NCBI GenBank assembly: GCA_049999805.1
Contig: JBNGIO010005082.1
Span: forward strand, 1-42,268
DNA from: Folioceros fuciformis
Lineage: Eukaryota
Length of the DNA: 42,268 bases
Direction: 5' to 3'
The notes under the pieces were generated by a model. The model worked only from the letters and a program-made list of their open reading frames with translations. It searched no databases and was not told the DNA's origin. Positions 2,776-42,268 of this stretch are shown here, piece by piece. A program made the translations under genes and the position numbers. How positions within the stretch are numbered: the first letter of the stretch is position 1; each line of letters opens with the position of its first letter.

Positions 2776-4307
2776 CGAACAAACAAATTGAGTGTCTTAA
2801 ACAAGCCTGTCACCTCACAGCGACGTTTCTATCCCAAGCATGCAGCCATCAGGGTACCAGCGTGAAGCCAACAGCACCCCTTCACAGTTACTCGAAAATC
2901 AGGATCACGAGCATGACAAAGCCTACAGGCTACAGGGATACAGAATCATCTCCGGATTTTCAATCACAATCTGGTGGTCACTCCATCGCCCACAAAACCT
3001 GCAAGAACGGAAGCTAGAACCCCTTCAGGATCTCCAAACTTTCCGACTGAGTGTTGCATTGGCCTCTTCAGCTTATTTTATGCCGAATGCGAACAACCTC
3101 CTTATCCAACACACGAGTGATTATCTTCTTCCGGCGTTCGTTCTTGACAGCTCGTCGAACACACTGGTGGATGATGCAAAGGCATGAGTTCATAGACATA
3201 TCGAAGCTGGGGTTTGCCGCCATGATCACGAACACCGTAGCGTGCATTTCCGGTCCAAGGTGGAGCCAGAAGTTCACGATGTTGCGATTTCTGAGAGACT
3301 CAGTGCTGAATAGTCGGCGGTACTAAGTCCTGTGCATCTCACTGTTGTTATTGCATACTGATGTCTAAACCTGACAGGCATTGCTGGACGTGTGCTACAG
3401 TGGAGGGTGGGTGACGGCTGGCGAGCAGGACTTAGCCAGGAAAGTTCAGCCAGGCCGGACAAGAGGAGGTTGTTAACTCGGTTGTTGCAACTGTTGAGAA
3501 GGCCGTCCTGCCGCCGTGTGCCGTCCTGCTGACGTGAAGTTTAGGAGACGACTCCAACCAGCTCGTCCTGTGGTTGAAAGGCCCCGCCCTTGCCTCTGTG
3601 ATGTCCGCCGACAGTGTGATTGGGTTCTTTTCCCCCTCTCGTCTCCTGCGCTCATCTAGCGCAGGAGACGTACATTTTCCATGGCATTTTCCAGCTGTTA
3701 AGCTGAGAGGTCTGGGGCTCTCTCTCCTGCGGCTGAAGCGCATCTCGTGGGACACACTCCTGGTCCGATTCTCCAATCGGGCTGTCGCTGCCCCTGCTGC
3801 TGCATTTCTCCAATCGTGCATGCGTCCATCGTTCCCCGGGTGCGAGTGGAGTAAAATCCGTCTAAGAAACTCTGGGAATTTCCTGGTACAATGCTTTTCT
3901 AGGAAGCTTGTTCGCATGTGTTCAGAGGATTTTCCTTTCTGCCTTCCCTTTATAGGACTTGTATGGGTAGACCATATGTATTTTCTCTGTTGGGCTGATG
4001 TGGGTGTATGGGCAACAGGAGCTAGTTGTTGCCTCAATGTTTGCTTTGCGTCATTGGCAGCTCGTGGGCCAATGGTAGCTACCTCCTCGGTGTCTTTGGC
4101 CTCCATAGAAGCTAGCTCTTGTTGTCCGTCCTGTCTTCAGTTAGCCTTGTTGTCGACTCTTGCTTCAGCATTATATATTGGTTCTGACATGTTTCCCGTC
4201 GACAGCAAACAAGCTTTGGGTCTCTTCCTCCCAGGGAAGATTCTTGGAAAGGAAGCTTTTTGGGAAGGGAGTCCTCACTGATTTTTTTATCAAGGAGAGG
4301 AAGCGCC

Positions 4308-4973
4308 ATGGCAGAACAACAAGCAGAAAGGGGAATGACCGGAGTGAGCGGGTCTCACACCATGACAGTCAAGGAGGATTCAAATCCAACGACTCCATCC
4401 GTCTACCGCCGTCACAGAAAGTGCTGCATATGTTGTGCTGTGGTTGCTGCCCTTATCGTAATCCTTGTCCTGGTGATCATCATTCTCTCGTTGACTGTAT
4501 TCAAGGCCAAAAGCCCCACTTTCACCACAGACAGTGTGATGCTGGAGAACATCGACCTCAATCTAGTTCCTCCACCGCAGGTAAACCTGACGCTCAGGAT
4601 CACACTGACTGTGCACAACCCCAACATAGCCAGCTTCAAGTACGGGAACAGCACGGCACATATCTACTACCGAGAAATTGAAGTGGGATATGTTCCCATA
4701 CTGGCAGGCGAGATGGAGGCACACTCTGCCAAGACTGCTAGCTCTAGCCTGATAATTGAGCTGGCTAAGTTCGTCTCGGAACCCCTCATCCTCATTCAGG
4801 ACGTTCTGGTTGGAGCCTTTCCTATTACCGTCAACTCTGTTCTCTCCGGCAAGGTTAACATCCTCAACATAGTCAAGAAGCATGTTACAGCCTCAGGATC
4901 ATGCACCACCACCGTTTTCGCTAATTTGACAGCAGGCCCCCTCGACTGTCAGTACTACACGAAGGGCCTGTGA
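4308..4973 (+). CDS. LEA_2 / NDR1-HIN1-like type II membrane protein (copy 1), intronless
   Basis: Basic/Cys-rich segment (RRHRKCCICC), hydrophobic TM helix ending in TVFKAKSP, NPN..SFKY motif and C-terminal Cys pair typical of LEA_2/NHL proteins. ATG at 4308. Confidence 0.9.
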   Translation: MAEQQAERGMTGVSGSHTMTVKEDSNPTTPSVYRRHRKCCICCAVVAALIVILVLVIIILSLTVFKAKSPTFTTDSVMLENIDLNLVPPPQVNLTLRITLTVHNPNIASFKYGNSTAHIYYREIEVGYVPILAGEMEAHSAKTASSSLIIELAKFVSEPLILIQDVLVGAFPITVNSVLSGKVNILNIVKKHVTASGSCTTTVFANLTAGPLDCQYYTKGL

Positions 4974-11144: not shown

Positions 11145-13803
11145 CCGGGTCCTGGCCTTCTCCTGCCTCCTTCGATCACGAACCCCATGGCATTCGGAGA
11201 TGAACCTGCACACCCTTCTAATTATTCCTGCAACACACTCTCCCGAGGCACCACCTCCTTGCTTCTGCAACAGCATGATAGGATCGATGCGGTTTATGGC
11301 TTCCCTCTTAAGCAAGAACAAGAGCAAAAGGAGGAGAAATCACCTGAAGCACTATCAAGAACAGAAAGAAGGGGACAATATCACCAGGAGGAGATGAGGA
11401 TAGACACGGCAGCGGCGGGGATGGCCTGCGGGGAGGCAATGCTGGTGGCAGGAGGGAGAGCTCGTCAGACATGCCGGAGGATGGGGAGCAGGGTTTGGTA
11501 GCCGGCGCCGTGGGCTTGTTTTTTTCTCTTCCATTGCCAGACGGCAGGGTTATCAGGTGGAGTTGATGGCGCTACGCCTCGACAGCGATGGTCAGGAGAC
11601 GGCAAAGTCATTGTCCAGGATTTGTGCACCGTCTGTAGCTTAGCTCAGGTCTGGCGGCTAGGATGCGTTGCGATTGTAGGGCAAGGAATGGGAGCCAGGG
11701 TTAGGGCTCAGGAGGAGGAGGGGAGATGCGGTGCACGCCGGTGACTCACAAGGTGTTGGAGGAGACGGTAGAGATTTCCCTCCTCGTCAATCTGCGTGGC
11801 AACCCCGTCACTGCAACGACGGACTGACAAGCAGGAATTGTGGCCTCTATGAGGTTGCAGTGATGTATGGAGCGTCCCGGTAAGCCGTGTGTGGAGTTGT
11901 TGCATGTCCTGTTCCGAGTTGCATATTCTGGTTGCATCTTGTGTTGTGAGTTGCACTCATGATGTTGTGGTATGCTCAGCCCGTGCACACGGATTGCTTC
12001 TGCCTCGAATGCCACTCATGTAACGAGTTCTTTCCACTTTCTACAACCTGAGCAAGGAGAATCGGTCCTTCCTCGTCGTGCATGCGGGTGTAGGCGAGTG
12101 TAGGGCCATGACGCAGGGTGGTTCTTTACACTCCTCCGTTCTGTTTCTACGGGGACGGGGCCACGGTGGATGAGTGGTGTGTGTGGCAAGGGCGTCCAGA
12201 GGCTTGGGGATCGTGTACGGGAATTCCGATTCCTTTCCTATGCAGAACTTGGGCATAGGCTGGAAACTGTAGAAGTAAAGCTGCATCCCTCTGGCATTGC
12301 TTGGAGCCTTGTGCACAAATCTCCATCGCATCTGTCACGTATATGCCAGCATCTCCACAGCCAGCTCCTGAGGTGAGTTTCGGCATCGTGGAGAACCATC
12401 TGCACTCCAGTCTGAACTCATCTCGCTGTCTGATATCTGCATCTGCAACACCAACTCTGTGTTTCCATGCCTAGAATACTTTGTCTCTGTGTTGATCGTG
12501 CTTTTTAATTGCTTTATCGGCGTCCAGTGGCTTTTTAAGTCGGTGTCAATTGCTTTCTGGTTGGGCGGTTGTTTTCTGTAGGCCGGCTCCTGAAATGTTT
12601 ATACATAGTCGTTCAGCAGCCATTGCTGACAGGATGTTCCTGCTTTGCTGTCTAGGAGTGAAGCGAATATCTGATGTACAAGATACCGGTCACGTTCTTG
12701 TGGTAAGGTCGTCTAATCAATGTAAGCGGCGTCGACTAATGTTGAATCGGACTCGGTTGTCCTTTCAGCCTGTGGGCAAAGATGGTGGACGTGCTGGTAC
12801 CAGGTCCTGGGTACTCGACTTTGGTCGCGCGGAGGCTGCAACGCGTATGGTGGGTGGCGTTCGAAGAGAAGGATTGGGCAGGAAGGTTCTGCGGGGCCGG
12901 GCAGGAGGGGGTTGGTATTGCGTCACTGTTTGGAAGGTAATCGTCTCAACGTCGAATGTAATACACGCTGGGCCTGCTACCAAATGGGCCCGTGGTTGAA
13001 AGGCGCCGCTGTGTGATCGTTCCAGACGACGTGTGCTTATTTTCCTCTCCTCTTTCGGCTGGTCTCTATCCCTTGTGAACTTAGCCTTGCAAAGGATCGC
13101 TAGGCAGCATTGCATGCAGTTGTTGCAGAGGGCGAGGGCTGGGACCGTGTCCCGCAGCTGTTGGAGCTCTGACGCAACCGTCTCCCCTGCTGGTTCACGT
13201 CTCTAATTAGGCTGCCGCTACACGCTCCCGTTACAATTCTGCAATTGGGCTGCCGTTGCAGTCTCCCCCTGCAGTTCTCCAAGCGGGCATCCCAAATTTT
13301 ATTTTCGAGGTGGGAGTGACGTGACGTGCTCTGAAGAAGAGCCGCAGGTGTGTAGTAGGAACGTCCTAGTGCGCCCCTGTGTGCTTTTCGGGGAAGCTTG
13401 TTCCTGTTCTTTCCTGGGAAGCTTGTCTTCGTCACCATCGAACTATAGTGGTTTGGGTGGACAAGTCTTGCACAATCGGGTACGGCATCTCCCGGCCTTG
13501 GTTAGCTCACTTTTATAGAATGTCTGCTGGGCTGATGTGGGTGTATGTTGCATGGTAGCTGGCTGGTTTTGTTTTTCCTCGTCAGGAGGTTGACATTAAA
13601 GAGTTGTTAGCTTTTTGTCAATCCCTCTCAATCAAAGGTAGCTAGCTGGCTTTTGTTGGAAGCTAGCTCGTCTTCAGCTCATTTGTGTGTGACCCATCTT
13701 CCTCGCCAGGAAGCAAGCTTCGGCTCTCCCATTTTTGGGGAAGGAAGTGAGGACACAAGTCACCGCAGTCTGGAATCTGATTCAGAACAAGACAGGAAGG
13801 GTC

Positions 13804-14490
13804 ATGGCAGAAGTACATGCATTAAGGGATGTGGACGGAGGAGACGCAGAGAATGGAGCGAACGGAGACACGGGGTCTCACACCATCGTGACAATGAAGC
13901 AGGATCCACGTGACAGCAGGAAGCGCAGCATCTTCCGTCGCTACAGAACGTGTTTAATATCCAGTGTTGTGGTGCTCATACTTATCGTCATTTTGATTGT
14001 CATCCTGGCCTTCACTGTGTTCAAGGCCAAAGATCCCAGTTTCAAAGTAGAGAGTGTGGAGCTGGAGAACTTCTCTTCGAATCCCTTACCACCACCGCGG
14101 ACGAATATGACGCTTAGGATCACAGCGACTGTGCACAACCCCAACATAGCCAGCTTCAAGTACGGCAACAGCACAGCATATATGTACTACCGGGGCATTC
14201 TAGTGGGAGTTGCTCCCATACCAGCAAGCGAGATGAAGGCACATGGTACGAAAGCAGTTAGCCTTGACCTGACTTTAGAGCTGGATACCTTCGTCTCCAG
14301 TCCTGCTATACTCATCTCGGACGTTATTGCCGGGGCCTTTCCCATGTCCTTCGATTCTACCATCTCTGGAAAAGTGAACATCGCCAACATAGTCAAGAAG
14401 CACATTACGGCCTCAGCAGTATGCAACACCACTATTCTCTCAAATTTTACAGAGAGCGCCATCGATTGTCAATACCACACGAAGCTCTGA
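13804..14490 (+). CDS. LEA_2 / NHL-like protein (copy 2), close paralog of 4308-4973
   Basis: Same architecture. The TVHNPNIASFKYGNSTA and NIVKKH segments are identical to copy 1. ATG at 13804. Confidence 0.9.
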   Translation: MAEVHALRDVDGGDAENGANGDTGSHTIVTMKQDPRDSRKRSIFRRYRTCLISSVVVLILIVILIVILAFTVFKAKDPSFKVESVELENFSSNPLPPPRTNMTLRITATVHNPNIASFKYGNSTAYMYYRGILVGVAPIPASEMKAHGTKAVSLDLTLELDTFVSSPAILISDVIAGAFPMSFDSTISGKVNIANIVKKHITASAVCNTTILSNFTESAIDCQYHTKL

Positions 14491-15934
14491 CCCCATGACT
14501 GTCAGGCTCGCCAACTTTTGCTCCTACGTGCTCCTTCCAAGGTACCCCTTTCACTTAGTACCACTGTCTTGCTCACCCTTGTCCCCAACTCAGAAGCAGG
14601 ATATGAGCAAGGACTTCAGAAACTTATCAATCTGGGTGTAACTTCATTGTTTGCTACACTAGAGTTCCCGTACTCCCTTTTCTTCCTACCACATCCTGAC
14701 CACAGGATTTGTCCACATATGGATTGGAGAGTTAGAGGCCATGCATCCCCTTTTTTTGGGGGCAGTGGAGTAAGCCTATCTCGAGATCCAGAAGCACGTG
14801 ATGAGGCTCTGGTTATAGCAAGCATGTGATTTCCGTAGGCAGAGTGTGACATAGGTCTCAGATGCCCTTTCACAATGTAGATACATAAAACGCGAAAAAG
14901 CTGTGTTCGTTTTGTTCCTCCTCCACTCTCTCCTGCGTGAATGAATGTCTGTACAGTACTGCCCGGAATGGGCGAGACGCTTGTTCCGTTGTCTGATTGT
15001 CCATCGTCCAGGAGGGAGGTGGGGCCTGCGTGACCTACAGTCGGTGCTGCCAGGCCACATGGTGGCCTCTGACCACTGCTCAGACCCACGAAAACCTGGA
15101 CCTCGACGCTGCCCCTTTTCTCAGGGCATGCAGGTCACATGGGAAACCAATCACATATGAGACGAGTCGTATGTGTGTGATGCTTTTGCCATTATTTCTC
15201 CACGGCAAATGTCATGCCTTTGGTCCGCTTGTGCACATCAAAAGAGAGTCCTGTGAAAATAGCATAGGGTTTGATGGATGCCATGTGTGTTCTGGAAGTT
15301 ACCTGCAATAAGAGAAAATAAAATAAAATAAAATAAAAAACGAAGCGTTGCAGCCTTGCAGGGAACCCGGCCCGGCCCAGCCAGCCAAGCCGGTGTTGGA
15401 GCCCGAATAATCTGACTTTTTCCCCTTCCAGCCACAAGTCTTTCCAGCTCACTCGGAGCAAAGCCCGTCCCCGCTGCGCGCTGGAAGAGAGCGCCCTCTG
15501 TCGTTCGAACCGCACTGGAGTCTGAGTGCAAAAGCTTGGGAGCAACAAGCGCAGCTCGAAATCGGTGCTGCCGATGGTCATTTGCAGGTTCGGGGCTCCC
15601 AACCCTTGTTGCTGTTGCATGGGGAGTAGTGTGGAAGTGCATTGTCTTCCTTTTTGCGGCTTCCCGATCGGCTTTGCTGCATTTTTGTTCCCGCTTGTGT
15701 TGCTTTAGATGAGGTGTGAAGACGGATCTGAGTGCGGCTGCTGGTGTCTGTGGCGGTGGTGAGAAGGTGCATCGGGAAGGTAGTGTGTAAGCAGCGGTGA
15801 GTTTGGCTTTTGGCAGGAATGTTCTTTCGTTGCTGATCTTTTTGTTGTGATCTTTGGTGAGCGCATGTGCAGGGGAAGAAGGAGTTAGGCAAGGCGGTGT
15901 CTTGTTCCTCCTCAGGATCTGAGGGGAGGCAGAC

Positions 15935-17979
15935 ATGAGGCACGATTCTCCTAAAGCGCGAGGCGGCCAGGATTCCTTGGGGCAGCAGATCATCCGAGTC
16001 ATCAGCAATGTAGGCTTCGCGTTCTTCGTGCTTGCCGTGCTTACGATCACCGTGATCGCGGTCACCTACCAGCCTCCGGATCCTCTGACGCAGCGGGGTG
16101 ATGAGATGTCCAGTATCTTGTCCGTGATCCAGAACTCCAGTTTCCGGCAGGATAATACCGTGATTGTGACGGGGGAAGAGTTCGGGAAGCCCAACTCGGA
16201 AGGGGCCATCACTCGGGACGATGTGGCGGACTTGCAGCATGACGCTTTGCCTGAAGAGGGGAAGAAGTGTTCGGGAGAGCTTGCTGTGGACTGCCTAAAC
16301 CCAGGAGTGAAAGCTGCCATCGAGGCCTGGAATCTGGACCACTTTCCTGCCCTGGACTTCTACAAGTATCGGCAGCCAGTGCATGTCCCGGACGATGCAC
16401 ACGCGTGTGATGTGGCTTGGAAGTACAGGGCCAAGTCGGATGGATCCTCCAGGATGTATAGGGATTACAGGAGGTTCGTGCTGAAGCTGCTGGAAGACTG
16501 TAAGTACGAAGTTGTTTCTTCTGGGACGTGGCACTCGGGCCACGGGGCGAAGCCAGGAAAGTATCACTATCCCGCCTCTCCTCCGCCTCCCCCGCCTGTG
16601 GAGCTGAACAATTCCGAGGACGATCCGGAAGATAGTCCGTTGGGCAATCCGGATGGCTCGGGTGAGAACCATGAAGGGGATGGGGCCGCGCCGGGCAACG
16701 TAGAGGGCGGAGGGGACGAAAACCCCTTGGGCGGAGAGCACCCGAACCCAGATGGTGGCAATACCGCGACTCCTGATGGCGAACAAGTTCATGCTGACTC
16801 GAATGGTGGAGAGAATCCAAACCAGGACCCGAGCGCAACTCCGGCTGTCATCGCTGAGCAAGGAATCGAGGTTGGTGTGGATAATGTGCAGGTCGCCGAC
16901 CTGACCCCGGTGGCGACGGAATCATCTATTAGGGAGCACAAGTACTTGCTCTATGAGAGAGCTGGTGACTATTGCAAGCACATGAACCACTTCACATGGA
17001 GCTTCCTTTGTGCTCTAGGAGAAGCGAAGTACCTGGAAAGGACGTTTGTTATGGACCTTGACTTCTGTCTTTCGTGGTCTAACAACCCTGGTCATGGTGA
17101 CGAACTCAAGGATTTCCGCCTTTACTTTGATCTGGACCACTTGAAGGAGGCATTGCCCATCGTTGAGGTCGGTGATTTCTGGAATCAGTGGAAACAGTGG
17201 AACGAGCAACACCCTGACGATCAGTTGCAGGTTTGTCCATGTCACTCACCTTGTCGTTTGTCTCTTTCGGTATTTGTGCGGTTGTTTTGACTTGTGCATG
17301 TTTGCACTGATTATTGATTGACATGTCCCTGCAGCTGCGTGACGTGCCGGAGTTTCAAACTACACCTATGGATCTCAAAGAGGACGATCATACCCTAGTT
17401 AGACGGCAGTTCCCTCTTCCAGAACCTGATAATTACTGGTACAGAGTCTGCGAGGGACCAGCACAGAGCGTGGTGGAGCGGCCTTGGAGCATATTGTGGA
17501 AGTCGAAGAGGATCTTAAATATTGTTGAAGCTATCTGTGGAAGGATGGAGTGGAAGTTCGATGTTCTTCATGTCATTCGCGGTGACAAGGCCAAGAACCA
17601 CGAACAGTATCCGCACTTGGATGCAGACACCCAACCTGACAGTATCTTGGACAAACTGCAGTACAAGTTACAGATTCAGGCACGGCGGAACATCTACATA
17701 GCCACTAATGAGGTGGAAACCTCCTTTTTCGACAAGTTGCGGGGGCTCTACAACATACACTTTCTTGATGACTTCAAGGATCTATGGGAGCCAAGCAGTG
17801 ATTGGTATGAGTCGACGAAGTTACTGCTAGAGTCACGGGGTCAGACGGACAAGGAACCAGAATTCGATGGCTACATGAGGGTGATGGTCGATTCGGAAGT
17901 CCTTTACCGGGCCGAAAAGAAGATTGAGACATTCAATGACCTGACGGCAGACTGTAAGAACGGTGTGAACACCTGTTAG
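15935..17979 (+). CDS. SUB1-like (At4g08810-family) / O-fucosyltransferase-related type II membrane protein; exons 15935-17230, 17335-17979
   Basis: N-terminal TM followed by TYQPPDP. Family motifs CDVAWKYR, RMYRDYRRF, WSFLCALGEAKYLERTFVMDL, KDFRLYFD, HVIRGDK, IYIATNE, EFDGYMR, ETFNDLTADCKNGVNTC. Phase-0 GT-AG intron. Confidence 0.88.
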
Positions 17980-19511
17980 ATCTTATTGATCCGTAACAAG
18001 GTTCGGCCTCGCGATTGCAGTCTTTTTTGCGTTCAGAGGCTGGAGTTTTCTGCTGCAGCCCCTCTGAAGTGGGCATGGTGGCGGTGTGGCACGTCGAACG
18101 ATCACGTAGGTGCCTGGCAGGGCAACAGGGGCTGTGAAGACTTGGAAGTGTTCTCTCCCCTTTGGCGCGGCTAGCTGAATTTTGAGAACTGGATGCAGTG
18201 TAGACGTAGACACTAACTTCAGGGGGTGCATTATTTGTCTGTGGTAGGAGGTAAACAGGGGTGTGTCAGGATCTGTCCTCTCTCCCCGTGTGGGGTAGCT
18301 ACTAGTTCCTGTCCTCTCAGACATTGCAGAGTCGGGTAGCATGTTTACAGCGTTGGGTTGGTGAGCGTAGGGAGAGTTGAACTTCCTGCTAGCTGTACCC
18401 ACCTGCGTGGTCAGAAATCCGTCTACATATATTTCTTCGTGCGAACATCCCCCACGCTCACTGCAGGAGTTTTTCTGCGTTCACTCCTTTCCGTGTACTG
18501 TTAACAAGCCATGGTGTATTAGCCATTCTATTTAAGCTTCAGATCATGAAGGCTTTGAACTCCGTAGGAGAGGAAGAAGACCCCAGCCAATTGAGTTATG
18601 TCGCGACCTCCTCTGCGTCACCTGGTCTGGCAGGAAAGTGGCCGTTGTGTTGTCGTCTGAAGCTTTGACAGCTTGTAGCGTGTTTTGGCATAACAGTTGT
18701 ACGTACATACATAAAAAACAGAAAAGATTGGCGAGAGACAAATGTGAAATGTCATATAGACTTCATTTGGAGATGTGGAGATCGAGTTGAGCTAAAATGG
18801 CCTCCCCTGTGCTCGTCGAGCAAACACTACAGGCTGCTAGCCAGCAAGCAAACAAAAGAGATACATGTGAAGCGAAGTCGTCTGCAACAGACGTCAGGCC
18901 AACGAACGGCAGCGAGGTAGATGCAGCTAGGGAACCGTTGAGCCGTCACACCTGCTGGTTAGAGTGCTGCAGAAGATTGCGAGAAGTGTGTCATAACCAT
19001 CTGCGGATTGTCCTTGAGGCTGATGGCGATGTCGCATAATGAAGCCCGCGGGAAGGTTGTACCGAGTACGTGGTCACTCTCCACCTGCAAATTGCTTGCT
19101 CCTGGACCGGGCCGGGGCTCTGCACCCCCGCGTTACGGCCTCTGGCGTGGAGCTCTTAGAGAGGGCCTGGCCTGTGTCCCTCTTCAGCCGCGTCGGCCTC
19201 GATATTTTCATGTCACGCACGACCTTCGCTTGCCTCTGGTGCAAATCCGAGAGGACAACACGGACTGCAAAGAAGTTCAGCCTCAGCCACGGCTTCGTCT
19301 TTCGTCAGGGTAATGGTGCTTTCTTCTTGATTGATTCCTGTCGAGGACCCGAGTGTGTGACACCTCTCGTGAAACTTGTGAGCTGGATCCAGGTTCTTGG
19401 AGTGCGTTAGCTTCTGCCATGACAGCAGCCGCTGCTGAATGAACGACTTGTGTGCTCTGGATTGACAGGAAAGAAGGAGAGATCGAAGTACTGCACTACT
19501 AGGTAGGGCAA

Positions 19512-20201
19512 ATGGGAGACTCCGAGGAGAATGAAGCTGCCCGGATGACGCAGGGGCTCAAAACGGAGGACAAAGTGCTGCGTGTGGAGGAGGAGATTGG
19601 AACTACCGTCAGGCCTCCCTTCCGCCGTTCCAGGTGCTTCAAATGTGTGGGGCTGACAGCAGCTGCCATAGTCGCTCTGGTTCTTGTCATTGTCATTCTT
19701 GTGTTCACGCTGTTCAAGCCGAGAGATCCTCGGATCAAGCTGGAAAGCGTGACCCTGACCGGATTGCAGTTCGGGCCCGGCGCGGGAAGCTTGCTGCCGT
19801 CTGTGAACATGAGCCTGGAGGTGACGGTTGCCGTGAAGAATCCCAACCATGCCAGCTTCAAGTATAAAGCCACCACCACTCGCTTCTACTACCGAGAGAC
19901 GGCTGTAGGAGAGGCACCCTTGCCTGGAGCCGAGCTGGATGCCGACAAGACCGACATCCAAGTCACCATGGTTGTCATCCAGGTTGACAGGTTCCTCAGC
20001 AGCGACCCCTCCAACCTTGTGCTCGACGTTCTTCGTGGAGAGCTACCCTTTTCGACCAAGAGTGAGGTGGATGGCTATGTGAACGTGCTCAACGTCTACA
20101 AACACCACGCCCATGGAATAGCTCAGTGCGACATGGTCATCTTCCTTGGAAATCAGACCGTGGGAGCCATGAAGTGTGACTACAATGTAGATCTGCACTA
20201 A
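19512..20201 (+). CDS. LEA_2 / NHL-like protein (copy 3, more divergent)
   Basis: RRSRCFKC, TM helix, FTLFKPRDP, VKNPNHASFKY and C-terminal Cys pair. Confidence 0.9.
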   Translation: MGDSEENEAARMTQGLKTEDKVLRVEEEIGTTVRPPFRRSRCFKCVGLTAAAIVALVLVIVILVFTLFKPRDPRIKLESVTLTGLQFGPGAGSLLPSVNMSLEVTVAVKNPNHASFKYKATTTRFYYRETAVGEAPLPGAELDADKTDIQVTMVVIQVDRFLSSDPSNLVLDVLRGELPFSTKSEVDGYVNVLNVYKHHAHGIAQCDMVIFLGNQTVGAMKCDYNVDLH

Positions 20202-28621: not shown

Positions 28622-29284
28622 CTAAGCACGACAAGACGGTAGTGTCAACCCGCCACAGAAAAAGGAAACGATGATGTACACCAAGACGATGATGAGGCAA
28701 GTCAATGAAGCCAGGAGCTTAGTATTTTGCAACCACAGCGACTGCCGAAGACGGCGGGACTGCTTCTGAAACCTAAAACTGTTGTCCTGTATCGTAGCAG
28801 TTTTGTCCACTAGTAGTTCAATCCTGTCCCCTCGTTCCAAAACCTTGTCAATGTTCTCAACCATCACCTTGTGCACCTCGGCCATCTCTCCCTTCACCCT
28901 GGTGATGGTGTCGGCATTGGGGTTATTCGAGTAGTATTCCATCTGCTGGTTCAAACTCCTGGAAAACTCATCGTTCATTGCATACGGCAGAGCAGTGGAG
29001 GCCACTCTCCCATATGCCTTCATAAATCTGCCATGAATGTCCTCCAGAAAAGCGAACGGAATCCTCCTCCCCATGGTCTCGTCCGCCATACACAGGAAAG
29101 CCAGCCCGTCTGCCTTCATGATGTGGAAAATATGGCGGTCCTGGGAGTAGGAAGCCCGCGTCTCCGGGACCGCTGGCACCCTCTCCAAAATTCGCCGCGC
29201 AATGGTCCCCGCGTTGCTGGATGCAGCGCTGAACTCCGCCAGCACCAAGGTACCCCTGGCTACCAGAGCGTACAAAATCGCCAT
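28622..29284 (-). CDS. VAMP71: VAMP71-type longin R-SNARE (VAMP714-like), intronless CDS
   Basis: MAILYALVARG..VLAEF longin start, GRRIPFAFLEDIH, AMNDEFSR, SNARE motif VMVENIDKVLERGDRIELLVDKT, C-terminal TM and CGGLTLPSC. Confidence 0.95.
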   Translation of the reverse strand: MAILYALVARGTLVLAEFSAASSNAGTIARRILERVPAVPETRASYSQDRHIFHIMKADGLAFLCMADETMGRRIPFAFLEDIHGRFMKAYGRVASTALPYAMNDEFSRSLNQQMEYYSNNPNADTITRVKGEMAEVHKVMVENIDKVLERGDRIELLVDKTATIQDNSFRFQKQSRRLRQSLWLQNTKLLASLTCLIIVLVYIIVSFFCGGLTLPSCRA

Positions 29285-29658
29285 GGCTCCCGTTCCCCCG
29301 AGAGCGAGTCGCCAGTGAGATCGTGAGAGCGGGCGAGATGCAGAGGAAATCCGCTCCCAATTCAAACCTCGACCTTCACGATCCGGCTGGCGGGAATTGT
29401 GTTTGTGCCCGGGCTTCCGCGCTCAGATCTCCATCCGTCCCGCCGCGCGAACCTCGCTATTACCCCTCCGGAGTAAGAAGCCAAGCCTGTTACACAGTCT
29501 ACTAATATATACTGGAGATGGTCTAACATTGCTTTGGATAGCACGGCTAAACGCGAAACGGTAAACTGGAGTACGGCCAGTTGTTGAACTTGCAAGGCAC
29601 AGTTGTCTGGCCAGGCTCCAATTTGAGCTTCACACCATCGAGATCCAGGAAGCAGGCC

Positions 29659-31787: not shown

Positions 31788-32132
31788 CTAACTGTGTAAC
31801 TGAGGAATATAACAGCCCGGAACGGGAACTGTGAAACCCCCGTAAAGGCAGGCTAAGATGAGGTCGGCTAAGCCGCCAGAGAGAGGGTAAGCTCCGGGGT
31901 TGGGAGTACGACACCAGCAATAGTAGGCAGCACTTATTCCCGCGCCACAGCACTCTCGCAAGTATTCCGGGCGTCCGCTGTAATCAAAATTTGCGCATTC
32001 CTGATTGTTTGGTTCGTTGACGAGACACTCAGTGGGGACATTGTCATAGGCCAGCGCTCCACGAGCCGCCCCTGCCACCATCAACACAGCTGCCAGAGCT
32101 GTCCATGCAGCCAACCTTAGGTCAGGAGACAT
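31788..32132 (-). CDS. Small secreted 8-cysteine-motif protein (nsLTP/prolamin superfamily), copy A
   Basis: Signal peptide MSPDLRLAAWTALAAVLMVAG; pattern C..C..CC..CWC..C..C. Confidence 0.85.
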   Translation of the reverse strand: MSPDLRLAAWTALAAVLMVAGAARGALAYDNVPTECLVNEPNNQECANFDYSGRPEYLRECCGAGISAAYYCWCRTPNPGAYPLSGGLADLILACLYGGFTVPVPGCYIPQLHS

Positions 32133-32331
32133 CGCAAGATCCAACCAAGACTGTGCGTCAAGGAGAAGAAGAAGAAGACGAAGAAGAAGAAGAAGAAGAG
32201 GTTTCCTCTAGTCCAGTGAAGGGCGGATGAGGGAATGCAGGCCTTCGTGACGCTGGTAGGCCAGTGCATACCGGGGTGGAACATATACGCCGGCGAGGTG
32301 CCGGACATGAGGTTGGTGATTGTTGCTCCTC

Positions 32332-33795: not shown

Positions 33796-34098
33796 TTACG
33801 GGGAAATGCAACTGGGAGGGGGCTCTGCAAAACCAAATGTCCCGCAAGCTGCGACCATCCCCGCCAGCGCGTTCTCCACGAGGTAAGTACCGTTCCTCCC
33901 ACACAAGCAACTGTAGATGTCTCCCACGGTGACACAGCAGTCATGGCCGCTTGTGAAGATTCCGGTGATGCTAAAATCCACGCAAGCAGTAAGTCCAGCC
34001 AAGTAAACGTAACACGGCTCCTGCGCGAACAGTCCAAGAGGCGCCACTGCCACCAGCAACAGAGTCGTCCATGCAGCCAGCTTCATGTAAGGCGACAT
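33796..34098 (-). CDS. Small secreted 8-cysteine-motif protein, copy B
   Basis: Signal peptide MSPYMKLAAWTTLLLVAVA; pattern C..C..CC..CLC..C..C. Confidence 0.85.
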   Translation of the reverse strand: MSPYMKLAAWTTLLLVAVAPLGLFAQEPCYVYLAGLTACVDFSITGIFTSGHDCCVTVGDIYSCLCGRNGTYLVENALAGMVAACGTFGFAEPPPSCISP

Positions 34099-35634
34099 CT
34101 CAGACCGAGAGTGAAGGGAACAAGGCCCGAGGCAAGGAGAAACAGGAGAACCCGATTCCGACTTTCCGAAACTGCTCAGCCAGACGCTGGAAGTTGTGAC
34201 GCTGGTAGACGAGGTTGTGAGCGCACAGCACAGCACACAGCGAAGGGGAACTTGTAGGCTCCGGGGAAACGAGGTAGGTCATGGCAGCTTCTCTGTTGAA
34301 CAACTCATACCGCGTACCTCCGGCGTGAACGCTACACTTCGCGTGTGAGGACGGTCACAAATTCGTTCAGTGTCACCCTCTGATACCTGGCAGCTCAAAT
34401 TCATACCACTCCGTACTCATCGAGACTCTGGTAGTGCATGCGAATCATGGCTCTACAGCCTGCTCAACTTCCACCGGGATCTCAGTGAAATGAAAATGGG
34501 AAAGGCTCCCTAACACCGATGAAGGACAGACAAGAAGATTACCATCTAATCGTTCTCGTGAACCTGATAAACAGTACTGCTCCCTTGTTCCTCCCACCTG
34601 AAGTAAATCAATCAGCTACTAATGAAGGTGTTATAAACTTGTTCGTCCTTGCAGGATATCAGTTCACAACTGGAGAGGTGCTGTAAAGGTGCAGCAACAG
34701 AGGCCTCAACCAGACTGCAAATTTGGCCTCATCCAGCTGAAAAACCTTCACCAATCTGGTTAGCAGCTTCTGGTGCAACAGGCGATTCTCGTCCAAAGCC
34801 TACAGTCAGCCGGGGCCTCCTGTATCGAACTCCTGATGGGGATTCCCAAAAGGAATATTGCTTAGTCTGAAAAACAAGTGGGAAAACAAAACAGTGTCAT
34901 CGGAGCTCGAGGGGGTTGGAAAGGATATGTGACTGTACACTTGCTGATAGCAGAATGTGATGCTCTGGATTGTTTTCTCCCTGAGCTTCTGTTTGCATCT
35001 GGCATGCATTTTTGCAGTCTATCAAGGAATATTCAGTTCCGTTAGAATCTGCGTGTGAGATCAGAGGGGGTTCGATGGTTCGGGTACATCTGTTTGTGAC
35101 CATGTAGCTTGCATCTGCAGATTGGCCTGGAGATATCCTGGGCGTTGCAGGCACAATCAGCAACTGGAACGTTGAGCCTTCAACCTTTGAGTTTGGATCA
35201 TACAGTACTGAGGGACATGGAAAAAGTTCATCGATTTTTATTAATTCAGGAGACGCAACTGTGAAACTGACTGTTCGGACTCCTCATGGTGGTGCCGTGT
35301 TGGTTGCCAAACTGGGGCGGCTATGCGATGACACGAGAACCCTTCATTGCAACACTCCAAGACACGCGACCTTTCTTGCATTAAGACTTCAACCAAGTGT
35401 AGGAAAGCAGCAAGAAAAGTAGCCGAGTTTTGGATGGGAATCGCATTCTAAAGCTTACAAATATCTTGAGCAACCGGCTGTGAGTTGCAAGTAAAGTGAA
35501 CACCCTTGGGCATCAGAATCCATACCCTGTCCAATCTACGTCTTCTCTCAAATGTTAACACTAAGGTAGGTACTGTGGGAACATCAGCTTGTCGTCTGTC
35601 AACGGCAAACAGTAAGGTTGCCCAAAGTTGCAAC

Positions 35635-35955
35635 TTATGGCACACTACAACTCGCAAAGGGAAGTGTCAAACCAGTCGCCAAGCAACTTGCAACGAGCAC
35701 TTCCAGCGCGCTATCCACTCCAGGATCACCGTGGCTGGAAGTTTCACACAAGCACTTGTAGACGTCTTGTAAGGAGACACAGCACTGAACAAGCGCGTCG
35801 AACAGAGATCCGTTGGAGTTGAGGTCCAAGCAATCCTCTCCTCCAGGTAGGAAGTAAGCGTAACACTGTTCGCCCTGAGCGACCGCTGCGTGAGGACGTG
35901 CCACCGCTACCATGAACAGAGCTGTCCATGCAGCCAGCTTCAAGTAAGTCGACAT
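35635..35955 (-). CDS. Small secreted 8-cysteine-motif protein, copy C
   Basis: Signal peptide MSTYLKLAAWTALFMVAVA; pattern C..C..CC..CLC..C..C. Confidence 0.85.
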   Translation of the reverse strand: MSTYLKLAAWTALFMVAVARPHAAVAQGEQCYAYFLPGGEDCLDLNSNGSLFDALVQCCVSLQDVYKCLCETSSHGDPGVDSALEVLVASCLATGLTLPFASCSVP

Positions 35956-37179
35956 CGTCAAGCAATACCTTTGCGTGAAGTGGACAAGGCAAGGTGCAAC
36001 AGTAGCAAAAGGCTCCGAATTGCCGAAACTGCTCAGCCAGCGTTGATCTGCTGCTGGTAGACTCGGTAGAGTGGATGACTACACCCCGCAGTGGAACTTG
36101 TAGGCCGGCGAGAAAACAAGATAGGTGAATGCTGCTCTTCTGTTGAACAACTCACACTCCCGGCGTGAGGACTTCAATTCGCGAGGTAAGGATTGTAGGA
36201 GGCTGTTTTAGTGTAAGTGTAACCTTCTGATACCTCGGAGCTCGAATCTGTGCCAATCCGTCCCTGTCAGAAGGTAATCCATGCGAATCATTGTGCTACG
36301 GCCTGTGAACCTTCCTCCGGGAGCTCACCTCCATGGCTCCGACTGTTTGGAAAAAGTATCATGGTATCCGGCTGAAAGAGTAGGTCGCCATTATTGTGCT
36401 CCGGCCTGCGATTCGACGAAGCACATATCACGTCAAAGCGAGCTTCACCATGCCTGCAAAGCCCCGATTGCTACCTCCTCATAGTGACCAATACTGCTGC
36501 CAGTGATGGAGACGTATATATATTCATCATGCCTTAGAGCCATCTATGGTGGATCTGATGTAGTCACTCCAACTATTTCATTCAACGCATTTATTATATC
36601 CAAAATTAAAGAACCGCCATGAAGTTCGAGGGATGAGGAGATTGTTGAGTTCTTAGACTCTATTGAAGGATTGTGTTAGAGTGGGCGTAGTACATACCTA
36701 CTTTGGAAAGCTATGAGAAATTTATTCTTGTCTTTATTGTGGTGTGCAAATCTCAGGTTCCTCTGTCCGAGGAGGCCCAATCGACTCCAAAGTCCGTCGT
36801 TTGTAACTTGTCAGCGTTTTCTTGGAACGACATATTTTAGCACCACAGAAGGACTGACGTGCGTTAGGTTAGTATTTGGAGATAGCATGCGTAATGGAGG
36901 GAGATCTATGAGCCCCACGCAGCAGATTTCGTTTGGGAAGAGAAACTGTACACAAATTTTCTTGAAGAATCAAGACAATTAAAAACATCCCTCCCCTTCC
37001 CAAGGGCACACACGTAGGAGCTACCAAGGGAAGCAAATTGATTTTGATAATGTCTCTTGTAACTCATCTTGTGCCTGTGTGATCTATTCGAGATTCTGCT
37101 GCAGGCTCAGGATGACGTAGTCTGTAGGAACAAGCAGAAACGTAGCAACCTCCTCACACATCTCAAGTAATCCTATAAA

Positions 37180-38444: not shown

Positions 38445-39114
38445 GCTTATTAGATTCACAATCAAACAGCACTAGGGCTCGGTTAACAGGGCTGCATCCG
38501 AGTTCTACAAGTGCTCTTCGGTCGAAAACCCCGTCGCCTGTCTCACGCTGGAGTTATGCCACCTCGTACTCTCAAATCTCATCTTCAAGGAAGGTTCCAA
38601 GCATGGACCAAATAGAATTATTCCATTGCCACGCGCTATCTGCGACGTTCTCCCTCCGATTTCCCCACAGCTTGCCCACTTTTGTTTCCAGAGCGGCACG
38701 CGAGCTCCCTAAGGTTTCTTGCGTCATCGCTGCAGACTGTGCTACGTGCAGTGGAGGAATTGCATCCGGTGTACAGGTATCCGCATGCATCAAGAGGCGG
38801 AGGTACGCGTTTGCTCGTTTTGCTCGGATCCAGCTCACGCTCGGTCCAGCGGCACCTTCGCTCAGGTGAGCGCCAGCAGATGCTCCGACTCAGGCGAACC
38901 TTACAATTTCGGGCGCCATTCCGTCTGGACTTGACAGACTTTCCGCTCAATTTTCGAGACTCAGACAGAAAGACCAGGCGCAATCAATTCCACTCAAGAT
39001 CCAGGCTCAACCTTCAAAACTTGCTGAGTTGAAACCCTAAATATTACGTCCTGTTAATAACAAGTGGGCAATTTCACTACCTGCAAGCTAGAATCAAAAT
39101 AGTCCCACGTCATA

Positions 39115-41418
39115 TCACTTCAGCAATGGAGCCCGTTGGGGAAGTGCCACCTGCAGCACGCCATTGCAAAGCAAAATAAGTCTCAAATAATTGAAGTAAT
39201 ATAAAAATAAATAAAAGCACTTACAAACATTACCTTCCTATGCTCCTCAATTCTAGCCTTGATGAAAGAATACAAAGCAACCCCAGCTATAGCAATTGCT
39301 GTTCCAACACCAGTCTGAGTCGAAATTGGATTCCCTGATGTTCCATATGTGTAAGCAAACACTTTCTCATGCGATTAATCGTGACAACACACACGAAATA
39401 TAAAACCTTACCGAAAACAAGAATAGAAAATCCAATAACAAATATTCGCTTCAAGACATTGCCAACTGCATGGGACAATGGTGCTACGCGCTCCAGTGTG
39501 TTAGTTGCAAGCTGCAAAATCATGAGAACGAGAACATAATCAACACACGATCAAATGTTAAGTGAGCACGACATTTTCTCATTCTTGAATAAGAGTATTA
39601 CGCATACCTGATTATATGTATGATAGAATAGTCCCACTAAGAGAAGATCGAATAGAAACTTTTGTAAGCCAATAGTTTGAAGAACATCTTCAATCCCATG
39701 AAGAAGTTCCTGCCCTTCCATCTGTTCTCAAAGTACCCACAAATATGTTACAATGAAATGAACTCTTCATCAAATGACGTTACTTAATTATCAATCTAGA
39801 TCTTACCAATATTGGGAGTGGGATACAGCATAGGAGTGACATTACTGTGATGTAAGCATAAACATTTGTACTATCCATACCAATCTGCAACATTGTGTTG
39901 GTGGGTTGTAAGCTCATCAAAACAAAACAGGGCATCAAACAAACAAGAGAAGAAACCAACTTGTTAAGTGTCATAGTACCATAGCCTTTTTGCTGTATAT
40001 GTTTCTATAGGTGAAAGCAACATTTGCGACCATTGCACCTGAAAATCCCAACCAATTGAAGGAAATCTCTGTCACAGACGCCATGCACACGCCTACACGA
40101 AGGTAATAAAATCAGTGATCAATCGATAATATGTCAATCTGCAATGCATCTTGACTATAATGTGTGTTTTGGAACAGGATAACATACCTACTACAACCGG
40201 GATCAAAGACAGCCATACAGTGTATGGAACTACTTGGTGTAAGATGAATCTTGTTGCTGTTGCACTGAAAAAAGGCTCCAAAGCTACATTTGAATGAAAC
40301 TTAATAAGAAACATGAGTCGAATACTATAACAATTACAAAAAAAATGGTTCATACCTTTAATGGTGTGTGTGAAAGAAACAGCCATTGTAGCAAAAGAGA
40401 TGTTTGTTGTCACATGGCCAATAGCATGGCAAATGGCTATTGGTAGAAGTAGAAAGAGTTGGTCTTTCGTGATTGTCTGTAACATGAACCCAAACGATGA
40501 AAGATTGAGGATCTCACATTCCTACAATATACAATGAGTTATTTAAGTAGCATGTCATTCAAAAACTTACAGCGCGCTTTGGGAGTCTCACAATCCATGA
40601 TATTAGACAATAAATTGTGCCCACAGTTAGCTCTATTGTTGACAAGAAACTGCCAACATGACCAAGCTAGTTAGAAAAGTACAAGAACGTTGTGCTTACT
40701 GAAAATGAATATGTACTTACTAGGGATATGGAAAGTAGTTGAGGATTTTCTTGTTGAGGATGTTGAAGATGACATTCAAGAAGTACCTAGTACATGGACA
40801 CATTAGCTGAAAGATATAGAGACAACATTATACATAGTTGTATGATGTATGAACTCCATGGATCTCTTACCACATGAAAAAGAAGAATGTTGTTAACAAT
40901 GTCGGATAATAAGCCACAAATGTTGCACGAAGTCCTCTGAAACAATCCCAAGACCAAGTTAATTAGGAATGGATCACCACAATCTAGTCTCTTCCTCCCC
41001 ATGACCATATCAAGTTTGTTAAAACAAACATTGAGTAAACAACAGAGATGGAAAAACACATAAATGCAAAAGAAGAGAATTGCCCACAAAAAGGTAATTG
41101 GCTGAAACCCCATAAATGGGAAAGAGGGGAAATGCCCACAAAAAGGTGATGGGCCGAAAACACATGAATGTGAAAGAGGAGAACTGCCCACAAAAAGGTG
41201 ATAGGCCAAAAACACATAAATGCCAAAGAGGAGAACCGCCCACAAAAAGATGATGGCTCGAAGAAGAAGAAGAATATACCCCAAAACAGCATAGGTAGCA
41301 AGACAAAGTACGTGAGATAATAAACTTACTTTGATGCAGAAGAAACTTGAGGGTCCCCATCCTCGTGTTCTAACAATGGCGCTTGAAGCTCATCCACAAC
41401 CACTTCATCATTTGCCAT
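39115..41418 (-). CDS. TPT: Divergent triose-phosphate/phosphate translocator (TPT) paralog; exons 41418-41330, 40936-40871, 40786-40721, 40649-40571, 40476-40356, 40283-40188, 40092-39980, 39884-39807, 39721-39608, 39511-39412, 39334-39234, 39150-39115
   Basis: TPT signatures [105 protein letters not shown]. Eleven GT-AG introns in frame. The 5' end is less certain. Confidence 0.9.
41052..41262. repeat. Intronic minisatellite, about 52-bp unit, about 4 copies
   Basis: Repeated aaaacacat(a/g)aatg...gagaa.(t/c)gcccacaaaaag(g)tgat within TPT intron 1. Confidence 0.85.
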
Positions 41419-42268
41419 CCCGGTAGAAATACTTCTACTACAACTCATGGTGCCCATAAGTTGAGTAAGGAGACAAGATAGACCCACAAAACTCCCTCCA
41501 ATGCCTTATTTCTATACAGAGAGTCAGACAACTGAGGATGCAAAAGAGCTCAGGTAGCTGCACATATATAGACATAATTTCGATGATGAAGTGTTGATGC
41601 TCCGATCGTCTACATGATTTGAATAAATGTTGCTCACAAAATAATAAGCTTTCGCCGAACGTCAAAGATGGATTCTCAATAGTAATAGAAATAATAAGGT
41701 TTTGTTGTGAGAGAACATATTTTGGAACTTTTAGGCGGAGGAGAGAAGGAAAAGGGAAGGCGGATTTAGGGCAGGGTTTAGGGTGGGAAATTAGGGTCCA
41801 GGGTGGAAAGGTGGAAGAGTGCAGGTGCAGGAGAGAGGACAGCGCGGCATTAGTGCGGTCGTGAAAGGCTGGTGGGCAAAAGCGGAATTGTGAAAGAAAG
41901 TACACGACTTGTGCAGGGGTGATAAGGCGTCAAAGAGTGATAAGGTAAGGAAAATGAAGTGGTCGTGAAAATGTGGAGGAGTCGTATGATGATCCAGACG
42001 GGAACGGCCGTAGCTTGCCAGCTCCTGCGGCGCCGTTGCCTCCTCACGACACTCTTGTCTGCCGTTTCGCCGCCTTTCGCCGCAGCAAACGGAACGGGCC
42101 CGTTGACAGACCGACGCTTGGGCGAAAGTGTTGGCGCTCCGTCCCACAGCTCCTGGCCACGCTATGCTGCCTGCGGTTGCTGCGGGCAATCGTTCCTGCC
42201 GCCTGCCGCCTGCTGGCCTGCTCAGTGCTGGGCCTGCGCTTTCCTGCCTGCTGCCGCCTCTTCTCCAG

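Follow-up and report, generated by a model that had tools for sequence, protein, structure and literature searches.

A fast-evolving member of the triose phosphate/phosphate translocator clade with a short acidic N-terminus in Folioceros fuciformis

Can a gene of the clade of triose phosphate/phosphate translocators (TPTs) encode a protein that does not follow the usual route into the chloroplast? The question is raised by a gene on the minus strand of contig JBNGIO010005082.1 of Folioceros fuciformis (assembly GCA_049999805.1), whose entire 42,268 nt, referred to below as the window, were analyzed here. TPT is the chief daytime carbon exit from chloroplasts, and to our knowledge the TPT clade of green plants has been found only in the plastid inner envelope. 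An earlier note on this gene, made from the letters of the DNA, proposed that its product lacks a transit peptide, carries dileucine motifs at both termini and works as a phosphate/triose-phosphate antiporter in a vacuolar or another endomembrane. According to our analysis, the gene appears to be an intact, selectively maintained and fast-evolving member of the TPT clade, and the visible N-terminus of its product, judged by composition and length, is not a TPT transit peptide.

There is no doubt that the gene is real. Its complete model comprises 12 exons (Table 1), running from the ATG at 41418 to the stop codon at 39117-39115, with borders set by eye and checked with a script. All 11 introns have the form GT...AG, and the joined frame of 352 codons contains neither internal stops nor frameshifts. 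Ten introns are 71-96 bases long, while intron 1, with 393 bases the sole one exceeding 96, harbors a tandem repeat (positions 41053-41262, four copies of a 52-base unit with 83% matches). The last 11 residues rest on the predicted final intron of 83 bases.

By sequence similarity, the gene falls within the plastidic phosphate translocators, a part of the DMT superfamily, and more exactly within their TPT clade. All six exon pieces compared match the Pfam family TPT (PF03151) at E<=1, and three of them exceed the gathering cut-off of 30 bits (73.8 bits for the read-through of exons 5 and 6, 51.9 for exon 7 and 38.8 for exon 10), the remaining three short pieces being below this threshold. Exons 5 and 6 and the in-frame intron of 72 bases that separates them form one open frame of 142 residues, which was used as a query against a collection of 5.8 billion clusters, limited to proteins of 250-2000 residues. 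This yielded 57 proteins, all of them containing PF03151, and those with functional names are almost all chloroplast triose phosphate/phosphate translocators. The spliced product is 66.6% identical to its best match over 338 residues (E 1.8e-167).

Intron positions were compared for three of the 11 introns. The intron after THTIK agrees in both position and phase with TPT genes of other plants, as seen in the read-through predictions P0058, P0059 and P0088 (THTIK-G...ALEPFF), and one homolog prediction carries an insertion at the junction of MW and Y, matching the intron found here. Moreover, a pair of Brassica napus isoforms (one of them X3) differs solely upstream of ...KVGFLGKYP, which places intron 1 of canonical TPT genes within 1-2 residues of intron 1 of our gene. 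This isoform pair suggests that in ordinary TPT genes the whole transit peptide is encoded by exon 1.

The substrate site is conserved. In the solved TPT structure from Galdieria, the ligand is contacted by His185, Thr188, Phe192, Lys204, Phe263, Tyr339, Lys362 and Arg363 (bioRxiv 10.1101/169169; this and the other published work is cited from excerpts of the papers). A PDB search with an exon piece containing an intron gave no match, and the homolog P0001 was used as the query instead. As traced through the alignments of 5Y78 with a Wollemia protein and of the latter with our model, all eight contact residues are identical in the gene. The substrate motifs GH, THTIK, YNQ and LKR, described as intact in the earlier note, are indeed intact in the alignments, and the replacement of the helix-2 His by Glu (Glu80) that it had pointed out is confirmed at the codon level. 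This His is present without exception in the 16 streptophyte TPTs used for comparison; it is outside the ligand-contact set of the solved TPT, and the Galdieria protein has Gln in this position. As the ten-helix DMT fold is, by homology, presumably kept together with all ligand contacts, the product most likely still exchanges phosphate for triose phosphate or 3-phosphoglycerate at a 1:1 ratio.

At the same time, the gene is markedly divergent. In a core of 302 residues, the identity of its product to 12 TPTs of embryophytes, drawn from liverwort, fern, gymnosperms and angiosperms, is 67.2-70.5%, while these TPTs are 76.8-91.4% identical to each other, except for two Riccia copies at 97.7%; the identity to the TPTs of Closterium and Chara is 62.6% and 59.8%, respectively. 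If the host is an embryophyte, an identity of 67-70% to all other embryophyte TPTs implies unusually fast evolution. In the maximum-likelihood tree, constructed from 19 rows with three more distant representatives as the outgroup, the branch of the gene is 1.21 changes per site long, compared to 0.09-0.46 for 11 embryophyte TPTs. The gene is sister to the embryophyte and Closterium TPTs taken together (the join is supported at 91/85 and the exclusion from that group at 82/87); it branches inside the TPTs of Chara and Klebsormidium and separately from the outgroup, although, given its branch length, the exact placement is unsure.

The divergence is accompanied by retention of conserved positions. 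Among positions invariant in 13 embryophyte TPTs, 166 out of 195 are retained, and when the TPT of Chara and two Klebsormidium-type TPTs are added to those 13, the fraction is 120 out of 131. Most of the 29 changed positions have undergone conservative substitutions, the radical ones including His80Glu (helix 2), Gly156His, Lys252Thr, Lys310Pro and Gly95Arg. When embryophyte-invariant positions are scored for the gene and the algal proteins alike, the gene retains 140 of 166, compared to 138 in Chara and 128 and 130 in Klebsormidium. Since about 30% of residues have diverged with no stop, frameshift or lost splice site arising in 12 exons, the sequence argues for continuing purifying selection and not for decay.

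A separate observation concerns residues 240-310 (exons 9-10, 39721-39412). Several states in this region are common to Klebsormidium-type TPTs and absent from embryophyte TPTs, among them a one-residue deletion and NP after helix 9. These Klebsormidium-like states may be either retained ancestral ones or convergent on the long branch.

The short acidic N-terminus, noted earlier, is clearly present: starting from the ATG at 41418, the first-helix motif F[FL]F..W (here FFFFMW) is reached after 46 residues, and eight of the first 40 residues are Asp or Glu. For comparison, we used 46 TPTs that begin with Met and bear the first-helix motif. In 45 of them the motif is preceded by 99-154 residues, the exception being a predicted short isoform; the number of Asp and Glu in the first 40 residues is 0-2 in 45 proteins and four in one. 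Hence the description of canonical TPT leaders as long and acid-poor holds for 45 of the 46 proteins. The suggested absence of a transit peptide stands in part: neither the visible exon 1 nor the 850 bases upstream of it contain a TPT-like leader, while the start codon and the lack of an upstream exon are still predictions. Judging from the sequence available, a plausible reading is that the transit peptide has been lost.

The frame upstream of 41418, said in the earlier note to be open for a few codons, is in fact open for 29, with two further in-frame ATGs (Table 1), and is closed by an in-frame TAA at 41508-41506. A start at 41457 would give 59 residues before the first-helix motif; the additional 13 residues are acid-free and rich in Ser and Arg (five Ser, or seven Ser and Thr together). 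Five ATGs located further upstream in the 850 bases open frames of 19, 18, 1, 45 and 13 codons that bear no resemblance to a transit peptide, and the GC-rich segment 41960-42268 displays codon periodicity in no frame. If the TATA-box-like TATATAT is used, the mRNA would start near 41540, leaving the ATGs at 41575 and 41565 outside, and the ATG at 41457 would become the first AUG.

Four different searches were made for orthologs, and none was found. The search with the exon 5-6 read-through described above retrieved ordinary TPTs only, proteins of 78-248 residues being outside its range. Among representatives at 50% identity, 366 proteins were found at E<=0.001; 148 of the best 150 were new, and none of these exceeded 71.7% identity to the spliced product, though clustering at this level could conceal an ortholog within a cluster of TPTs. 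A search with exon 9, the most lineage-specific exon, produced seven word-sharing candidates, none of them at E<=1. Among metagenome contigs, 71 stretches with the pattern contained a single relative (L001, a cDNA-like contig of the ordinary TPT type).

In our estimate, the chance that the mature mRNA is free of a further coding exon upstream and that the protein leaves the standard chloroplast route is slightly below even. With exon 1 devoid of a transit peptide, the protein would probably not be delivered via the standard stromal-leader route. The likeliest alternative would be co-translational insertion into the endoplasmic reticulum (ER), with helix 1 serving as a signal anchor and both termini being cytosolic; from the ER, any endomembrane could be reached, the tonoplast being one candidate. 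Several points weigh against this interpretation. The choice of start codon, the exons at the 5' end and the small final intron are predictions. The window extends just 850 bases upstream of the ATG, and an exon beyond 42268 is possible; the stretch from the in-frame stop to the ATGs contains several AG dinucleotides, potential acceptors; and the 13 residues from the ATG at 41457, being acid-free and rich in Ser, Thr and Arg, resemble the very start of a transit peptide. Moreover, the branch is long, and relaxed constraint would also yield such a branch, while the codon usage of the gene, which resides in an AT-rich island, could stem from weak expression or from a history of its own. Finally, as no ortholog has been found, conservation of the short N-terminus is unsupported.

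Some of these points are shared with explanations that keep the protein in the plastid or deny it a function. The model may be incomplete at the 5' end, with a first exon, beyond the window or unrecognized, encoding a normal transit peptide and being spliced to the stretch directly upstream of 41418, and the gene would then be an ordinary, if divergent, TPT of the inner envelope; we consider this possible but doubtful. The 29 open codons above 41418 with possible AG acceptors, the 850 bases upstream and the long leaders of 45 of the 46 other TPT-clade proteins are all consistent with a missed exon. However, the Brassica comparison implies that one exon normally encodes both the leader and the mature N-terminus, and an additional intron would be new; it would exceed 850 bases, compared to 71-96 for ten of the introns here and 393 for the remaining one. 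The TATA-like element, which precedes the first in-frame ATG by about 107 bases, also speaks against a missed exon, and the acidic run would be awkward within or just after a leader. A protein with no cleavable leader could still reach a plastid membrane, following a non-canonical route or using the Ser/Arg-rich start from 41457 as a minimal leader, and such an outcome seems quite unlikely to us. It agrees with the unchanged substrate site, with the acid-free 13 residues and with the presence of complex-plastid homologs in outer plastid membranes, e.g. TPT1 of diatoms (PMC5635587). On the other hand, 13 such residues followed by eight acidic ones are unlike all 46 leaders compared. Moreover, we know of no polytopic inner-envelope carrier of land plants that lacks a leader. 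Very unlikely, in our opinion, is a 5'-truncated duplicate, silent or drifting to loss, whose N-terminus is chance upstream sequence. A duplicate of this kind would account for the long branch, for the 29 of 195 embryophyte-invariant positions altered, several of them radically, for the codon usage unlike that of the neighbors and for the failure to find an ortholog, but not for some 30% divergence with the frame and splice sites of 12 exons preserved, nor for the retention of all eight ligand contacts and 120 of 131 streptophyte-invariant positions; the share of invariant positions kept is on par with the working proteins of Chara and Klebsormidium.

The remaining explanation, that put forward in the earlier note, is secretory sorting to the tonoplast by acidic dileucines, making the product a vacuolar phosphate/triose-phosphate antiporter. 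The sorting signal itself is well founded: motifs of the class (D/E)X3-5L(L/I) are needed for tonoplast sorting of INT1, NPF8.x, ESL1, TPC1, MOT2 and VIT1 (PMC5383025, excerpt). The claim of dileucines at both termini holds for the N-terminus in a relaxed sense, as DELQAPLL fits this class, while the strict form [DE]xxxL[LI] is absent, the acid being 5 or 6 residues before LL in place of the classical 4. When the 38-residue N-terminal segment is shuffled, the relaxed motif arises in 14% of cases and the strict one in 6%. At the C-terminus, ...PQRAPLLK lacks an acidic residue in range, agrees with neither rule and thus is not an acidic dileucine. Furthermore, the relaxed motif is found N-terminal of helix 1 in 32 of the 46 chloroplast TPTs, though in only two of them within the last 37 residues before the helix. 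The APLL repeat is mildly unusual, since any 4-mer common to both termini occurs in about 1% of shuffles (a post-hoc count). On the side where the termini lie there are 15 Lys and Arg, compared to 2 on the opposite side, and by the positive-inside rule this bias would make the termini cytosolic and the motif accessible, if ER entry occurs; ER entry itself is presumed, and the lack of an ortholog leaves conservation of the motif unsupported. A literature search gave no report of a TPT with dileucine or tonoplast sorting, nor of a phosphate translocator with no transit peptide. The step to the tonoplast has thus not found support in the lone relaxed motif, and we assess this explanation as between unlikely and quite unlikely, the motif evidence being weak; the tonoplast location is speculation. 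The somewhat broader scenario, in which a copy of a land-plant TPT was stripped of its leader and sent to an endomembrane (tonoplast or post-ER) as an antiporter of phosphate and three-carbon sugar phosphates, with Glu80 retuning charge or substrate preference, is likewise unlikely.

If retargeting did take place, it would be a natural transfer of a plastid carrier to another membrane with the substrate site intact, reversing the presumed derivation of the family from endomembrane transporters. It would also mean exchange of sugar phosphates for phosphate across a non-plastid membrane, in a compartment where none is known. If, on the contrary, an upstream exon exists, the gene is merely a divergent chloroplast TPT of little interest.

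Table 1. Features of the TPT gene and its upstream region (positions in the window)
Feature	Position	Strand	Remarks
Exon 1	41330..41418	-	from ATG 41418; last codon split; donor gtaagt
Exon 2	40871..40936	-	start of helix 1, ...FFFFMW
Exon 3	40721..40786	-	
Exon 4	40571..40649	-	helix 2; Glu80 codon GAG 40633-40631
Exon 5	40356..40476	-	GH...THTIK; equivalents of His185, Thr188, Phe192, Lys204
Exon 6	40188..40283	-	ALEPFF...; preceding 72-base intron in frame and stop-free
Exon 7	39980..40092	-	equivalent of Phe263
Exon 8	39807..39884	-	
Exon 9	39608..39721	-	most lineage-specific exon; ends FYHTYNQ (equivalent of Tyr339)
Exon 10	39412..39511	-	GNVLKR; equivalents of Lys362, Arg363
Exon 11	39234..39334	-	helix 10
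Exon 12	39115..39150	-	11 residues and stop; APLL codons 39132-39121
DELQAPLL, residues 10-17	41368..41391	-	relaxed (D/E)X3-5L(L/I); outside strict [DE]xxxL[LI]
Upstream in-frame extension	41419..41457	-	ATGs 41457 and 41448; would add MGTMSCSRSISTG (13 residues) or MSCSRSISTG (10)
TATATAT, TATA-box-like	41564..41570	-	about 107 bases upstream of ATG 41457; consensus reading only

The gene is located in a 3-kb AT-rich and intron-rich island (39000-41960), its coding sequence having a GC content at third codon positions (GC3) of 0.39 and its introns a GC content of 35.5%, compared to GC3 of 0.46-0.68 in ten neighboring open reading frames (ORFs), most of them intron-poor; the transitions near 39030 and 41960 are sharp. 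Transposon capture or insertion was considered and rejected, as no direct or inverted repeats flank the island. In one sequencing run bearing the same species label, a lone contig of 393 bases was placed on 38800-38910, leaving the gene uncovered, and this carries no weight regarding expression. That contig ends at 38910, about 120 bases short of the transition between GC-rich and AT-rich DNA; the run is small, and this may be a coincidence.

The window is gene-dense, containing also LRR, cupin and HATPase pieces and a RanBP2 zinc finger. Three single-exon LEA_2 (PF03168) paralogs with N-terminal membrane anchors are found on the plus strand (4188-4973, 13693-14490 and 19503-20201), spaced by 5-9 kb. 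Three tandem ORFs of 139-160 codons on the minus strand (31788-32207, 33796-34278 and 35635-36078) are Cys-rich and have no Pfam match; they share a signal-peptide-like start, ...KLAAWTxL...VA..., and look like a small family of secreted proteins. A VAMP7-type gene with longin and synaptobrevin domains (28622-29422, minus strand) forms one unbroken frame and is apparently intronless. Finally, a DUF7074/DUF7075 O-fucosyltransferase-like gene (15923-17979, plus strand) consists of two adjacent frames, 15923-17290 and 17311-17979. Its best match, a transcript, is 54% identical, and the identity is 45% to Riccia and 38-42% to Psilotum; in a quick tree it pairs with this transcript in an unresolved group of liverwort, ferns and one angiosperm clade. 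The lineage is thus sparsely represented among the proteins in databases, and the host is probably a land plant without seeds.

Among the systems described earlier, the dileucine-sorted transporters of the tonoplast (INT1, NPF8.x, ESL1, TPC1, MOT2, VIT1 and DMP1) share with our gene a relaxed motif at a terminus, but they come from unrelated families, and the motif here is a candidate one, non-classical in spacing and arising in 14% of shuffles. In DMP1, alternative in-frame starts include or drop such a motif (PMC5383025, excerpt). TPT homologs of complex plastids resemble the proposed state of our protein in being found in membranes other than the inner envelope: according to the excerpt of PMC5635587, TPT1 of diatoms resides in the chloroplast-ER membrane and has a cytosolic C-terminus. 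Unlike our gene, they are distant in sequence and plastid-associated, belonging to secondary plastids of the red lineage. The example of Arabidopsis GPT1, which enters the ER as well and is recruited to peroxisomes (PMC9478949; PMC11540758, excerpts), demonstrates that the plastidic phosphate translocator family can work outside plastids. However, GPT1 represents the GPT subfamily and is still targeted to the plastid as well as to the ER, whereas the gene studied here shows no plastid leader.

The solved transporter GsTPT2 of Galdieria sulphuraria (PDB 5Y78/5Y79) has the same eight ligand contacts and, by homology, the same ten-helix DMT fold, but it is a red-algal and far more distant protein, with Gln at the helix-2 position occupied by His in streptophytes and by Glu here. 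In the chloroplast TPT both termini face the stroma (bioRxiv 10.1101/169169, excerpt), unlike the cytosolic termini proposed above. The land-plant chloroplast TPTs are the closest relatives of the gene, having the same Pfam family, the same ligand contacts and shared intron positions. The gene differs from them by the helix-2 Glu in place of His, a different C-terminal tail and the N-terminus, with 46 or 59 residues, depending on the start, before the first-helix motif instead of 99-154 and with eight acidic residues instead of 0-2, and its divergence from these TPTs is about double that between liverwort and angiosperm TPTs.

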